A stretch of DNA of 29,450 nt, taken from contig JBAXFW010000001.1 of NCBI GenBank assembly GCA_037139635.1, positions 1 to 29,450 on the forward strand, in the 5' to 3' direction. The notes under the pieces are model-generated. The model worked only from the letters and a program-made list of their open reading frames with translations. It did no database searches and was not told where the DNA came from. Source of the DNA: a bacterium (lineage in GTDB: Bacteria; Patescibacteriota; Minisyncoccia; Phycocordibacterales; UBA9973). The position numbers were made by a program, and so were the translations under genes. Shown here one piece after another: positions 20,672 through 26,324 of this stretch. Numbering within the stretch: position 1 is the stretch's first letter; each line of letters begins with the position of its first letter.

Positions 20672-22420
20672 ATGAAAAACAAAACACCAAATTTTGATAA
20701 AGCAATAGGTGAAATTTTAGAGCACTTAATTCCACACAAAAGAGTTTGCACGTGGAAGGACAAGAATCCTCACTGCGAAGGAGATTTTGATATTGAAGAA
20801 GGAGACATAAATTTTTTGAAAATATTTAAGGTGCCACCACCTAATTTTTGTCCTACGTGCAGAAGAATGAGAAGACTAACGAATATGAATTTTTCAAGGC
20901 TTTTCAAGCGTAAATGTGACGTACCAGGGCATGATGAAATGATGATATCAGTTCTCCCTGAAGAATGTCCTTTCCCAGTATATGATTATAAATATTTTAT
21001 TGATGATAATTTTGATGCTTTTTCTTTTGGTATTAATTACAAAGATACAGATAATCCAATAAAAAGCCTACTTTCATTTCGAAAAAAGTTTCCAATGCCT
21101 TCATTTTTAAATCGTGATCCATCATCTATCAATAGTGAATATTCAAACGGAGGTAGAAATTTAAAAAATGGGTATTATGTTTTTGCTTGTTACGAAACAG
21201 AGAATGCTTGGTATTGTGCTCAGCTTCACAAGACTCGTAATATTATGGATTCTTTAGTCATCACTGACTCAGAGTTTGTATATAAATCTGTTTTTTCTAA
21301 TCATCTTTATAAAGTATTCTTTGCATATTTTTCAATAAATTGTACTGATAGTATGTTTTTATTTGATTGTCGTAATTGCACTAATTGTTTTGGTTGTGTA
21401 AATCTACGTAATGCAAAATATTGTGTTTACAATAAACAATTTTCAAAAGAAGAATATGAGATTTTTATGTCAGAAGTTTATCCGTTAACAGCTACAAAAA
21501 TCTCTTCTTTTGAAGAAAAATTTTGGCAATTAGTTAAAACTCTTCCGATGAATGGTACTAGGAATGTCGCATCAGTTGATGTTTTTGGTGTGAATATAAA
21601 AAATTCAAAAAACTTGCTTGATGTGATAGATGCAAATAATTCTGAAAATGTTCGTCATTCTGATGGAGTTGTTTTACATAAAGATTCTATGGACATTTTA
21701 TTTTCAGGTGGTTCTTCGAGTGTGATATATATGTCTACTAACATAGGTTCTCATTCGACTCGAGTTAAATTTTCGACTTCATCGAAGTTTTGCGCAGATT
21801 GCGAGTTTGTTTTTAATTCGAAAAATTTAAATAATTGTTTTATGTGTTTTGGCTTACAAAATAAATCTTATTGTGTGTTTAATAAACAATATTCTCCCGA
21901 GGAGTATTTTAAAATTGTAGATAATATTAAGACAAAAATGCTTGGTAGGGGAGAATATGGTGACGGACTTGGTTTAGAATTTTCTGCTCAAGCATATAAT
22001 TTTTCTATCGCTCACTTTGCTTATCCACTTAATACTAAAGAGATAAATATGCTTGGCGGATATGAGGCGAAAGAGCCTGAGACAAATGTTGGTAATATCG
22101 AAATTATAAAGTATGCTGATTTACCTCAAAATATTGACGAAACACCTTTAGATATTTTAGAGAAAGCAATTTTATGTGAAAAAAGTAATAGACCTTTTAG
22201 AATTACTGCTTCTGAGCTCCAGTTTTATAAAGCAATGAAATTACCTCTTCCAAACATACATCCATTGTTAAGAATTGAAAAGATTTTAAAGCTTGTTAAG
22301 ACTGGGAAAAAATACAAAGCGACTTGTGTGAAGTGTGGGGAAAAAATAGAAACAGTTTTTGATCCAGAAGATAAATATATTTTTTATTGCGAAAAATGTT
22401 ATCAGCAGGAAATATATTAG
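20672..22420 (+). CDS. Cys-rich zinc-ribbon/repeat protein of unknown function (family I associate with CPR genomes)
   Basis: N-terminal C..C knuckles (CPTCRRMRR), two copies of NCFxCxxLxNxxYCVxNKQxSxEEY, LCEKSNRPFRI, C-terminal CVKC...YCEKCY. Confidence 0.8.
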   Translation: MKNKTPNFDKAIGEILEHLIPHKRVCTWKDKNPHCEGDFDIEEGDINFLKIFKVPPPNFCPTCRRMRRLTNMNFSRLFKRKCDVPGHDEMMISVLPEECPFPVYDYKYFIDDNFDAFSFGINYKDTDNPIKSLLSFRKKFPMPSFLNRDPSSINSEYSNGGRNLKNGYYVFACYETENAWYCAQLHKTRNIMDSLVITDSEFVYKSVFSNHLYKVFFAYFSINCTDSMFLFDCRNCTNCFGCVNLRNAKYCVYNKQFSKEEYEIFMSEVYPLTATKISSFEEKFWQLVKTLPMNGTRNVASVDVFGVNIKNSKNLLDVIDANNSENVRHSDGVVLHKDSMDILFSGGSSSVIYMSTNIGSHSTRVKFSTSSKFCADCEFVFNSKNLNNCFMCFGLQNKSYCVFNKQYSPEEYFKIVDNIKTKMLGRGEYGDGLGLEFSAQAYNFSIAHFAYPLNTKEINMLGGYEAKEPETNVGNIEIIKYADLPQNIDETPLDILEKAILCEKSNRPFRITASELQFYKAMKLPLPNIHPLLRIEKILKLVKTGKKYKATCVKCGEKIETVFDPEDKYIFYCEKCYQQEIY

Positions 22421-22443
22421 TTTATTTGCCTATTTTAGAATAT

Positions 22444-22480
22444 AAATAAAATGCCTCGCTCAAAAAATTGAGCAAGGCAT
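22444..22480 (-). terminator. Intrinsic terminator oriented for a minus-strand transcript
   Basis: 13-bp stem ATGCCTCGCTCAA/TTGAGCAAGGCAT with one mismatch, preceded on + by AAATAAA (a U-rich tail on -); no T-tract follows on +. Confidence 0.6.
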
Positions 22481-22585
22481 GGAAGTACGACCTTGGCAGA
22501 TTGTGTTGAGTGAAGTCGATGAGACTCTCACTGAGAGCACCGTTTACCCCAAGGAAGTTGAACTACAGTCATAAAGAACAATTCA
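22444..22585 (-). ncRNA. Candidate ~140-nt small RNA divergent from the ileS T-box
   Basis: Predicted promoter TTGCAA-17-TAGCAT, predicted terminator, GC-rich core (44/90 G+C over 22481-22570) that can fold into a long rod. No family recognised. Confidence 0.35.
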
Positions 22586-22590
22586 TTTAG

Positions 22591-22641
22591 ATGCTACACC
22601 TAATTGATTTTTCTTGCAAATTACGTATTTACTGTTATTAT
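22591..22641. promoter_or_regulatory. Promoter of the ileS T-box leader, possibly bidirectional
   Basis: Palindromic TTGCAA at 22614-22619. Plus strand: 16 nt to TGtTATTAT (hexamer 22636-22641), then 6 nt to the base of stem I. Minus strand: 17 nt to TAGCAT (plus ATGCTA 22591-22596). Confidence 0.55.
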
Positions 22642-22647
22642 TTAGAA

Positions 22648-22831
22648 GTACGAAGAAGGAGACATCACTCCTGAGTACGGGGAAGAAATGTTTTGCGCGA
22701 TTCCGCCTTCGTTAACACTACGGCGAGACAAAGTAGAACCCCATAAATGAGAAGCAAGCAAGGTGGTACCACGAGAGAAACTCGTCCTTGTATAGCAATT
22801 ATTTTAATTGTTGTACGCGGACGAGTTTTTT
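22648..22831 (+). promoter_or_regulatory. Ile-specific T-box riboswitch upstream of ileS
   Basis: Stem I GUAC-GAAGAA-GGAG-[ACAUCA]-CUCC-UGA-GUAC with an AUC (Ile) specifier at 22664-22666. Stem II GGGGAAGAA...GUAGAACCCC. Antiterminator AAGG-UGGUACC-ACGAG-[AGAAA]-CUCGU-CCUU. Confidence 0.92.
22778..22831 (+). terminator. T-box attenuator terminator
   Basis: AAACTCGTCC (22778-22787) pairs with GGACGAGTTT (22819-22828) and extends through a long inner stem; T6 at 22826-22831. Mutually exclusive with the antiterminator. Confidence 0.88.
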
Positions 22832-22862
22832 ATTTAATTATTATTAATTTAAATTATAAAAT

Positions 22863-25800
22863 ATGGAAAAATCAAGTAATGCACTAAGGGAAGAGGAGAC
22901 TTTAAAATTCTGGAAAGAGAATAATATTTTTCAGAAATCTTTAGATAAAGAAGCACCACGAGGTAAATATGTTTTTTATGATGGTCCTCCTTTTGCTACG
23001 GGGACTCCTCACTATGGGCATATACTTGGTAGCACTGCAAAAGATGTCATCGGACGATATCAAACGATGCGAGGGTTTACGGTGCCGAGACGTTGGGGTT
23101 GGGATTGTCACGGATTGCCGATTGAAAATATTGTTGAAAAAGATTTAGGAATCTCTGGTAAAAAGGCAATTGAAGAATTGGGTATTGATAAATTTGTGGA
23201 ACACGCTCGAAGTAAGGTATTGACCTATGTCGCTGTTTGGGAAAAGACTATTGATCGTATTGGGCGATGGGTTGATTTTAGTAATTCATATAAGACGATG
23301 GATAATACTTTCATTGAAAGTGTTTGGTGGGCGCTTGGTGAATTAAATAAAAAAGGATTGCTTTACGAAGGAGTAAGAGTACTCGCATATTGTCCTCGTT
23401 GCGAGACGCCAATAGCAAACTCTGAAATTGCTATGGATAATAGTTATAAAGATATAACCGATATTTCTGTTTATGTAAAATTTAAGATATTGTCCTCGCC
23501 TGATATGTACCTTCTTGCCTGGACTACGACTCCGTGGACATTGCCAGGGAATACTGCAATTGCAATAAATAAAGACATAATTTATGTAAAAGCAAAAGTA
23601 GGAAACGATATTCTTATTTTAGCAAAAGAAACTGTCGCCAATGTTTTGAAGGATAAAGAATTTAGTATTCTTGGAGAAATAAAAGGTTCTGAATTTATTG
23701 GTCTTTCATATGAGCCGGTATTTAATTATTACAAAAATATTGATATGCCAAATAAAGAAAATATTTGGAAAGTTTGGCATGCAGATTTTGTGACTCTTGA
23801 TAAAGGTACAGGTATTGCTCATGAAGCACCCGCTTTCGGTGAAGAAGATATGGGACTTGCAAAAGAGCACAATATTCCATTTATAAGACACGTCGAACCA
23901 AATGGAACGTTTTCAAAAGAAGTTACAGATTTTGTTGGAATTAAAGTAAAACCAAAAGATGACTCTTCGGGTACCTCAGGGCAAGTCGGCCAATCGACTG
24001 ATGTTTTGATAATTAAATATTTAGCAGGAACCGGAAGTTTATTTGCGAAAGAAAAAATAATTCACTCATATCCTCATTGTTATCGTTGTGAGACTCCACT
24101 TTTGTATTATGCACTACCATCTTGGTTTGTGAATATACAAAAAGTTAAAAGTGATATGTTGAAAAATGCAGAAACCATGAATTGGGTTCCTGCGCATTTA
24201 AAAGATGGGCGTTTTCGAAATACTATGGAGGCTGCTCCTGATTGGACTATTTCACGAAATCGCTATTGGGCAAGCCCACTTCCTTTTTGGAAATCAGAAT
24301 CTGGAAAAATAATGTTTGTAAATTCTATTGATGACTTAAAAGCTAAAACTAAAAAATCAGGTAATAAGTATTTTGTCATGCGACACGGTGGGGCAGAAAG
24401 TAACATCAAAGGAATTATAAGTTCAAAGGTTGAAGACGTAGACCACTTAACTGAAGAGGGCAAACAACAAGTTTTAGCTTCCGCTTTAGAATTAAAAGAT
24501 AAAAAAATTGATTTAATTATTTATTCAGATTTCATGCGAACGAAAGAAACTTCTCAAATTGTGAAAAAAGAATTAAATATCCAAGACGAGAATTATTTTT
24601 CAGATGAGCGTTTGTGGGAATTGGGAGCCGGAGTTTTTGATGGTAAGACTTGGAGAGAATATTTAGACATAAGAGAGAAAGAAGATAGATATTATTACAA
24701 ACCTGAGGGAGGAGAGTCGCACCATGATGTTAAATTGAGAATTGCAGAATTTCTATATGATTTAGAAAATAAATATAAAGGCAAAAATATTCTCATTATT
24801 ACCCATGAATTACCAGCACGGATGTTTTTGGTTGGCACAAAAGGTATTGATGATACTGAGACAATACTTGAACTAGAAAATAAAATAAAGAATTTCAACA
24901 ATGCAGAAGTAGCAGAAGTACCATTTGTTCCTTTACCTCACAACCGTGACCATAACCTTGATTTACATAGACCATATATTGATGATATAACTCTTGTCGA
25001 TGAGCTAGGAGAGGAGTATAAAAGAGTTCCTGAAGTTATTGATTGTTGGTTTGAGTCAGGTTCTATGCCTTTTGCGCAAGATCATTTTCCATTTGAAAAT
25101 CCAAATTGGCAGAAAGAAAATTTTCCTGCAGGATTTGTTGCAGAATATATTGCTCAGACACGTACTTGGTTTTATTACACCCATGTTATTTCTTCGACCT
25201 TATTTAATGAGGCGCCATTCAAAAATGTCGTCACGACTGGAACGATACTTGCTGAGGACGGACAGAAAATGTCAAAGTCTAAAAATAATTTTCCAGATCC
25301 ATGGATTTTATTTGATAAATACGGAGTAGATGCACTTAGATTTTATTTGATGTCGTGTCCAGTAATGAAAGGGGAAGATATTAATTTCTTAGAAAAAGCA
25401 GTACAAGATATTGCCAACAAAATAGTTGGAAGATTGAGTAATGTTTTAGCTTTTTATGAGCTTTACCGAGAAAGAGAATTAGAAACAGAAGAATGTAAAA
25501 ATCCCAGTAATGTTTTGGATCAATGGATCCTTTCTCGCCTAAATGAATTGGTAGTAGAAGTTACTAGTGGCATGGAAGCTTATGATATGGCTCAAGCTAC
25601 TCGACCATTTGAATTATTTATCGAGGATCTTTCTACTTGGTATTTGCGTCGTTCAAGAGATGCTATTAAAGAAGGAAATAAAGAAACTAAAAAAGTTTTA
25701 TGGCATGTGCTGAAAACCATAGCTGTGTTGTTGGCGCCTCTCACTCCTTTTGTCTCAGAAAGTATTTGGCAAAAATTAAAAAAAGAAAACGAAGCAGAAA

Positions 25801-26324
25801 GTGTCCATTTGGTGAATTGGCCGGAAGCAGGAGAAATAGATGAAGTTGTAATAGAAAATATGGTAGAAGTGAGAAGAATTGTTTCTCTGGGATTAGAAGC
25901 TAGACAGAAAGCTAGTATCAAGGTTCGTCAGCCTCTTGGACAATTGCGAATAAAAAATTACGAATTAGGAATTGAGTACGGAGAATTAATAAAAGATGAA
26001 TTGAATGTAAAAGAGGTAATTGAAGATAGAAATATTGAAGAAGTAGTTTTACTTAATACAAATATTACTGAAGATCTAAAAAAGGAAGGGGACTATCGTG
26101 AGCTCGTAAGAGCAATTCAAGATATTCGTAAAAAAGAGGGACTCACTCCAAGTGATGTCATAACGCTATCACTTGAGACAAACGAAGAAGGGAAAAAACT
26201 TGTACAAAAATTCGAAAATGAAATAAAGAAAACCGTCTTGGCTTCTATGATAAAATTTGAAGTTATTTCAGAGGAAGAAATAAAAATCAATGATTTGGTA
26301 TTTAAAATATCAGTTCAAAAATAA
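22863..26324 (+). CDS. ileS: Isoleucine--tRNA ligase, type 2, with an inserted histidine-phosphatase domain
   Basis: FYDGPPFATGTPHYGH, GWDCHGLP, WTTTPWTLP, GTGIAH (editing), WTISRNRYWASP, AEYIAQTRTWFY, KMSKS, WYLRRSR and IleRS2-type C-terminus EGDYRELVRAIQDIRK. Insert RHG...THE at ~24364-24925. Confidence 0.97.
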   Translation: MEKSSNALREEETLKFWKENNIFQKSLDKEAPRGKYVFYDGPPFATGTPHYGHILGSTAKDVIGRYQTMRGFTVPRRWGWDCHGLPIENIVEKDLGISGKKAIEELGIDKFVEHARSKVLTYVAVWEKTIDRIGRWVDFSNSYKTMDNTFIESVWWALGELNKKGLLYEGVRVLAYCPRCETPIANSEIAMDNSYKDITDISVYVKFKILSSPDMYLLAWTTTPWTLPGNTAIAINKDIIYVKAKVGNDILILAKETVANVLKDKEFSILGEIKGSEFIGLSYEPVFNYYKNIDMPNKENIWKVWHADFVTLDKGTGIAHEAPAFGEEDMGLAKEHNIPFIRHVEPNGTFSKEVTDFVGIKVKPKDDSSGTSGQVGQSTDVLIIKYLAGTGSLFAKEKIIHSYPHCYRCETPLLYYALPSWFVNIQKVKSDMLKNAETMNWVPAHLKDGRFRNTMEAAPDWTISRNRYWASPLPFWKSESGKIMFVNSIDDLKAKTKKSGNKYFVMRHGGAESNIKGIISSKVEDVDHLTEEGKQQVLASALELKDKKIDLIIYSDFMRTKETSQIVKKELNIQDENYFSDERLWELGAGVFDGKTWREYLDIREKEDRYYYKPEGGESHHDVKLRIAEFLYDLENKYKGKNILIITHELPARMFLVGTKGIDDTETILELENKIKNFNNAEVAEVPFVPLPHNRDHNLDLHRPYIDDITLVDELGEEYKRVPEVIDCWFESGSMPFAQDHFPFENPNWQKENFPAGFVAEYIAQTRTWFYYTHVISSTLFNEAPFKNVVTTGTILAEDGQKMSKSKNNFPDPWILFDKYGVDALRFYLMSCPVMKGEDINFLEKAVQDIANKIVGRLSNVLAFYELYRERELETEECKNPSNVLDQWILSRLNELVVEVTSGMEAYDMAQATRPFELFIEDLSTWYLRRSRDAIKEGNKETKKVLWHVLKTIAVLLAPLTPFVSESIWQKLKKENEAESVHLVNWPEAGEIDEVVIENMVEVRRIVSLGLEARQKASIKVRQPLGQLRIKNYELGIEYGELIKDELNVKEVIEDRNIEEVVLLNTNITEDLKKEGDYRELVRAIQDIRKKEGLTPSDVITLSLETNEEGKKLVQKFENEIKKTVLASMIKFEVISEEEIKINDLVFKISVQK
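23963..23985 (+). repeat. Short repeat element inside ileS
   Basis: CTCTTCGGGTACCTCAGGGCAAG; same flanking words as the glyA copy at 16448, including the preceding GATGA. Confidence 0.7.
25942..25976 (+). repeat. Phased heptamer tract inside ileS
   Basis: AATTGCG AATAAAA AATTACG AATTAGG AATTGAG: five AAT-starting 7-mers, one identical to the unit at 337-357. Confidence 0.55.

Follow-up and report, generated by a model that had tools for sequence, protein, structure and literature searches.

Transcriptional T-boxes of Bacillota (Rfam family RF00230, with tyrS and ileS of B. subtilis as examples) present the specifier codon in an internal loop of a long stem I that carries a distal double T-loop platform; their other parts include stem III, an F-box-bearing stem IIA/B and, at the foot of helix A2, a G.U pair. 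Transcriptional T-boxes generally require the elbow platform of the long stem I for fast tRNA capture, and forms with an intermediate or ultrashort stem I are translational (PMC7583486). The ultrashort version occurs in the ileS T-boxes of Actinobacteria (Mycobacterium tuberculosis, M. smegmatis and Nocardia farcinica; 'class II' in TBDB), which mask the Shine-Dalgarno (SD) sequence and keep both stem IIA/B and stem III; the short-stem model of TBDB is applied only to Actinobacteria and to RF00230 matches with a truncated stem I (PMC7778990). Deletion of the IIA/B pseudoknot from a short-stem-I ileS T-box lowers tRNA binding about 1,200-fold, of which a plain hairpin recovers about 200-fold; an antiterminator without stem III shows no appreciable tRNA binding; steric sensing relies mainly on the G.U pair with which helix A2 begins; and in vitro, a protein fraction was required for one Bacillus T-box (PMC7583486). 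Natural reduction is represented by the glyQS T-boxes, which act on transcription without the IIA/B pseudoknot, have no stem II and keep the long stem I with its elbow platform as well as stem III.

The ileS leader in the 29,450-nt stretch of patescibacterial DNA analysed here (the window) combines features of all these forms (Table 1). Judging from its sequence and its relatives, it is probably a T-box riboswitch that controls ileS by tRNA-Ile-dependent transcription attenuation. With the actinobacterial T-boxes it shares the short stem I with its K-turn and with the AUC specifier in the apical loop, the lack of the elbow platform, an S-turn stem II directly after stem I, the chemistry of the T-box bulge and the regulated gene; unlike them, it ends in a terminator and contains neither stem IIA/B nor stem III. 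With the Bacillota T-boxes it shares the K-turn base, the S-turn, the T-box sequence, mutually exclusive antiterminator and terminator helices, the U tract and the terminator as the default. Like glyQS, it is naturally reduced, without the IIA/B pseudoknot, and predicted to act on transcription, but it keeps stem II and drops the platform and stem III. Other Patescibacteria possess full forms (L073 from the same genus; L081, L084 and L074) with homologous stem I, stem II, core and terminator, in which the F-box and stem III hairpins are retained in linkers of 35-139 nt, compared with 16 nt in the window. Measured from the start of stem I through the antiterminator, the window leader is 143 nt long, the related leader L024 107 nt and the M. 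tuberculosis construct 166 nt.

Table 1. Features of the ileS leader and its surroundings in the window
Feature	Position	Strand	Description	Basis
ORF between argS and the ileS leader	20672-22420	+	582 aa; C-terminal treble-clef zinc finger	sole Pfam match, weak
Spacer between this ORF and the ileS promoter	22440-22612	-	strong fold; terminator-like hairpin (22480-22451) and T run at its end	folding, -50 kcal/mol, z = -5.0
Promoter-like site	22614-22641	+	TTGCAA, 16-nt spacer, TG-extended TATTAT	consensus scan, 9/12 matches, TG present
Ultrashort stem I	22648-22678	+	31 nt	sequence reading, folding, Rfam alignment, covariation
K-turn bulge	22652-22654		GAA, 3 nt	
Tandem G.A/A.G pairs	22655-22656 with 22673-22674			
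Specifier codon	22664-22666	+	AUC (Ile), then conserved purine A22667	
Stem II	22679-22742	+	64 nt; directly after stem I, no spacer	folding, alignment, covarying pairs
S-turn of stem II	22685-22687 opposite 22732-22735		GAA opposite AGUA	
Apex of stem II	22697-22722		enlarged, branched, includes CGUUA	
Linker	22743-22758	+	16 nt, purine-rich, unstructured, contains UGAG	consensus AAAUGAGAAG-yAAr
Antiterminator	22759-22790	+		Rfam core posterior near 1.0; pairs kept, some with compensatory changes
Helix A1	22759-22763 with 22786-22790			
T-box bulge	22764-22770		UGGUACC, 7 nt	
Helix A2	22771-22775 with 22781-22785			
Intrinsic terminator	22777-22831	+	hairpin of about 25 bp (22777-22829); U6 at 22826-22831	
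Segment shared by antiterminator and terminator	22777-22790		14 nt	
ileS	22863-26324	+	type-2 IleRS, 1153 aa	Pfam
His_Phos_1 insert in IleRS	24348-24872	+	aa about 496-670	Pfam, E = 2e-25

A putative sigma-70-like promoter lies immediately 5' of stem I, and from its position the transcript would start at about 22648, where stem I begins. The initial annotation had described stem I as 31 nt long, with a K-turn-like bulge below a 6-nt apical loop that holds AUC, and sequence reading, folding and the Rfam alignment all bear this out. The stem consists of a 4-bp C-stem (GUAC/GUAC, read from the sequence), the bulge and tandem pairs of the K-turn, and a 5-bp upper helix (A-U plus GGAG/CUCC) that closes the loop ACAUCA. 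At the sequence level, the GA motif of the K-turn is present at the base of stem I and is kept in relatives with a simple-hairpin stem I. The stem I pairs covary in an alignment of 14 leaders and again in one of 78 (see below). Among the aligned leaders of the genus, the specifier and the purine 3' of it are invariant and the first two bases of the loop vary. Some leaders of the genus contain an extra hairpin in stem I, on its 3' side or just 5' of the specifier; the 3'-side hairpin turns stem I into a three-way junction in which the G.A pairs of the K-turn are replaced by Watson-Crick pairs. The long stem I with the AG bulge and the distal loop that form the tRNA-elbow platform is absent from the window leader, and the RF00230 alignment passes over 75 model positions in the distal part of stem I.

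Stem II rises from a 4-bp base (GGGG/CCCC) through the S-turn, which is flanked by covarying pairs, to an 8-bp upper helix. The internal loop that had been noted initially as AAGAA/GAA is real, but it is more than a plain loop, being the S-turn known from canonical stem II. The apex was rightly described as enlarged and as containing CGUUA, a pentamer that we reject as the F-box: it sits in a part of stem II that varies among relatives, off the conserved position, and in those relatives that have a true F-box hairpin, the hairpin is located 3' of stem II. Within the genus, stem II is 24 to 64 nt long, with the apex accounting for most of the variation; most relatives fall between 24 and 49 nt, compared with 64 nt in the window.

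The linker that follows is short and contains UGAG, as first reported, although it comprises 16 nt rather than 17. The window leader truly lacks the stem III hairpin as well as the stem IIA/B pseudoknot and its F-box, as the initial annotation had proposed, whereas some relatives from the same genus keep them; no fold corresponding to a hidden stem III or pseudoknot was found within the 16 nt. Comparison with L073 indicates that the linker takes the place of stem IIA/B, the purine string 5' of stem III, stem III itself and the AA 3' of it, and that the purines flanking stem III are retained.

In the antiterminator, the first four bases of the bulge, UGGU, are complementary to the 3' ACCA of the tRNA. 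The 5' arm of the terminator is the 3' half of the antiterminator, so that the two structures are mutually exclusive. Folding gives -7.8 kcal/mol for the antiterminator and -30.1 kcal/mol for the terminator; with a difference of about 22 kcal/mol, termination would be the default state, as in classical transcriptional T-boxes. The whole leader has a minimum free energy of -61.9 kcal/mol (z = -5.4), and none of 200 shuffled sequences folds as well. The terminator ends 31 nt before the ATG of ileS, as originally stated, and overlaps no start codon or SD sequence. Across 31 leaders of the genus, 6 of its 21 pairs show compensatory changes, and all 31 have 5-8 U directly 3' of the hairpin. Some leaders of the genus carry large insertions atop helix A2. 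In all genus leaders, the A2 pair beside the bulge (22771 with 22785; alignment columns 410 and 466) consists of A and U; among 78 CPR leaders, A-U accounts for 45 cases, G-C for 25 and G.U for 8.

A search of the whole window with Rfam at the gathering threshold yields no match. In E-value mode, the comparison with the Rfam T-box model by Infernal that had been suggested at the outset aligns RF00230 with the leader end to end at 44.9 bits (E = 9e-9), below the gathering score of 93, with near-certain posterior probability for the T-box core and for the K-turn at the foot of stem I. Several other sub-threshold Rfam matches at 22400-22900 (SQ2397, Spot_42, lactis-plasmid, L10_leader and rliI) were dismissed, being due to terminator hairpins. 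[quoted passage not shown] It is the only T-box-like match in the genome (825 kb in 117 contigs). With RF00230 scores of 33-75 bits, thirteen other CPR T-boxes also stay under the 93-bit cut-off and would therefore be missed as well.

To what extent the leader is conserved was assessed with blastn, which found matches in 16 of 36 genomes of the same genus; 14 leaders, all upstream of ileS, were aligned. The proposed pairs hold in 88.7% of the cells of this alignment, and 10 pairs changed on both sides. A covariance model built from it (R1) matches 73 of 151 genomes of the genus (71 of 149 when the unpublished genomes G084 and G155, on which no other claim rests, are excluded), and beyond the genus, 22/151 genomes of the order, 10/151 of the class and 29/151 of the phylum. 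In the genus, the R1 leaders precede ileS in all 43 cases inspected. Covariation, for which the initial annotation had proposed to collect CPR ileS leaders, is strong: in 78 model-aligned leaders, 92.7% of the cells pair and 23 of 24 pairs show double-sided changes, although fitting this alignment to the R1 model somewhat favours the structure. None of 500 shuffles reaches the real value, and the slid control does not come close either.

Across the phylum, the specifier tracks the gene, with AUC found before class I aminoacyl-tRNA synthetases, and GAC or AAC before class II synthetases of the Asp/Asn type. GUC and GGC specifiers are also seen, so that the set covers Ile, Asp, Asn, Val and Gly, before aminoacyl-tRNA synthetase genes. 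The fourth position of the bulge is U in all AUC leaders, and C occurs only with other specifiers. Three genomes of the genus contain a second leader with an ultrashort stem I, in which the specifier is GAC (Asp), the bulge is UGGC and the F-box hairpin is retained (L184, positions 505-650 of contig C4 in G015; L185, 529-704 of C14 in G157; L186, 1549-1748 of C3 in G081); the genome of the window has the ileS copy only. In one family (f224), four GC-rich ileS T-boxes with an ultrashort stem I (L094, L096, L097 and L098) lack a U tract, begin their coding sequence 18 nt past the T-box and are probably translational versions within the phylum. Among the papers covered by a full-text search, none combines T-boxes with CPR, Patescibacteria, Parcubacteria or Saccharibacteria. 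The combination was initially called new; it appears so with respect to this literature, but the design is widespread in Patescibacteria rather than unique to the window.

The segment between stem II and helix A1 was compared in every R1 match, including 31 leaders of the genus. An unstructured linker of 16-17 nt, as in the window, is present in 24 of the 31; four keep the F-box hairpin (stem IIA/B) and have no stem III (L042, L043, L046 and L049), two keep the stem III hairpin without IIA/B (L047 and L048), and one, L073, carries both. In L073, the order is IIA/B, AAUGAGAAG, stem III, UAAAAAG and A1, and in the minimal forms it is AAAUGAGAAG-yAAr-A1; the hairpins are gone and the purines flanking stem III remain. 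These purines correspond to the published RRRxG...AA string (PMC7583486). Outside the genus, most leaders have both elements, in linkers of 35-139 nt, but the minimal linker turns up again in further families (as in L054, L065, L066 and L095). Since at least one of IIA/B and stem III persists in some relatives from the same genus, the window form is apparently a reduced derivative. In a tree of the N-terminal half of IleRS, the four linker states are scattered, and well-supported branches force at least four changes for the minimal state. The rooting of this tree is unreliable (the outgroup rows are long-branched and one, L076, is a mis-called ORF), so that the direction of change is inferred and not given by the tree; repeated loss is the simpler reading because re-invention of a homologous F-box hairpin is unlikely. 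Thus, lineages of a single genus appear to have shed these elements repeatedly.

The gene downstream of the leader encodes an IleRS with the Pfam domains tRNA-synt_1 (E = 1e-124), Anticodon_1 and DUF5915. Between the two halves of its catalytic domain, this protein also contains an inserted histidine-phosphatase domain (phosphoglycerate-mutase-like) in which the RHG motif and the later His are intact. The insert occupies the equivalent site in the IleRS of other Paceibacteria (L104-L116), and in two other CPR records (L117 and L120), a histidine-phosphatase domain is located at the N-terminus of IleRS. Upstream, the 582-aa ORF looks like a lineage-specific insertion because argS directly precedes the ileS leader in L008, L009, L010 and L016. 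The minus strand of the adjoining spacer contains no ORF of 60 aa or more, no Rfam match and no match in 80 other genomes of the genus; it could be a small RNA.

The initial annotation had matched UGGU to the end of tRNA-Ile, and the genome indeed encodes a tRNA-Ile(GAU) with the discriminator A73 and no encoded CCA, so that AUC is predicted to pair with the anticodon and UGGU with ACCA. A second tRNA-Ile, with the anticodon UAU, is encoded at 3615-3689 of contig C76, and only one CAU tRNA is present among the 30 tRNAs detected. The initial remark that the genome has no SD sites to sequester agrees with a crude count, based on crudely called ORF starts, in which the SD core occurs upstream of 5% of 435 long ORFs, compared with 11% at a control position; genome-wide, there is no SD signal. 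A sequestrator would therefore have nothing to hide, and a terminator output fits such a genome. The long ORFs also show a signal resembling an extended -10 element (TGnTAnAAT) at -15 to -7 from the ATG, and its location 7-15 nt 5' of the start codons suggests that many mRNAs are leaderless. The sequencing runs listed as containing this DNA are all lake and freshwater DNA metagenomes, with no RNA run among them.

The predicted mechanism comprises tRNA binding, discrimination of charging and a co-transcriptional decision, with the kinetics to match. Transcription would begin at about 22648, and the K-turn stem I would offer AUC to the anticodon of tRNA-Ile(GAU), with stem II, positioned by the K-turn, bracing the codon-anticodon helix through its S-turn, by analogy with the structures of the Nocardia and Mycobacterium ileS T-boxes. 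The 3' ACCA of an uncharged tRNA would then pair with the UGGU of the bulge, the retained purine string (GAGAAG...AA) would help to lock the weak antiterminator, and RNA polymerase would read through into ileS. When no uncharged tRNA is at hand, the more stable terminator would form and transcription would stop at the U tract.

Several observations speak against attenuation of this kind. Three parts that are called necessary (PMC7583486), namely the elbow platform, IIA/B pseudoknot and stem III, are all missing; the A2 pair next to the bulge is A-U instead of G.U; the Rfam score is below the threshold; and no L7Ae-family K-turn-binding protein was found in the genome. Slow growth, slow transcription or an extra factor are possibilities that might account for fast tRNA capture without the platform and for stem I-stem II docking without the pseudoknot hub. 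The absence of three experimentally necessary elements, together with the large excess of terminator over antiterminator stability, could also mean that the leader is a decayed T-box with no response to tRNA, a constitutive or otherwise regulated attenuator that damps ileS. This seems unlikely. In the 31 leaders of the genus, little or no change is seen in AUC and the purine after it, in the S-turn, in the purine string or in the 7-nt bulge, whereas neighbouring bases of loops and stems vary with compensation, a pattern that is hard to explain without selection for reading both ends of the tRNA; besides, a constitutive terminator in front of an essential, single-copy synthetase gene would be costly.

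A working T-box could alternatively have the missing elements replaced, either by a protein cofactor or by the enlarged apex of stem II. The unusual size of stem II in the window is compatible with this possibility, as are the partial rescue of the pseudoknot deletion by a plain hairpin and the protein fraction needed by the Bacillus T-box (PMC7583486). However, most relatives with the minimal linker have a small apex (stem II of L024 is only 29 nt long), the G032 leader (L007) has a similarly enlarged apex and nevertheless contains both IIA/B and stem III, and the genome encodes no detectable L7Ae-family protein; such replacement is unlikely. That the 3' hairpin acts on translation or mRNA stability instead of termination, as would follow from all ultrashort-stem-I T-boxes studied so far being translational (PMC7583486, PMC7778990) and from the GC-rich leaders of f224, is hardly tenable for a hairpin that is followed by U6 in the window and by a U tract in every one of the 31 relatives, and that leaves the start codon uncovered in a genome with no SD usage.

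With respect to tRNA-dependent attenuation as the preferred reading, it is about an even question whether the leader is a natural minimal T-box, in which an anticodon hairpin, an S-turn helix, a single-stranded purine string and a bulged antiterminator suffice for a charge-dependent decision. In that case, some cellular contexts would allow a T-box to do without its elbow platform, its IIA/B pseudoknot and its stem III hairpin. Reviews link the ultrashort stem I with translational control; in the window, it is paired with a terminator. A single genus provides a graded natural series on a constant background of stem I, stem II and terminator, in which a leader carries both elements, just one of them (IIA/B or stem III) or none, so that the necessity of each part of the T-box is directly testable with natural sequences. 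For engineered tRNA sensors, the leader also offers a natural scaffold of very small size. It is a real, conserved, reduced T-box and a natural test of which parts are required. Because annotation in the style of Rfam or TBDB misses the T-boxes of this whole phylum, regulation that depends on tRNA charging is under-counted in these bacteria, which are reduced and likely symbiotic.
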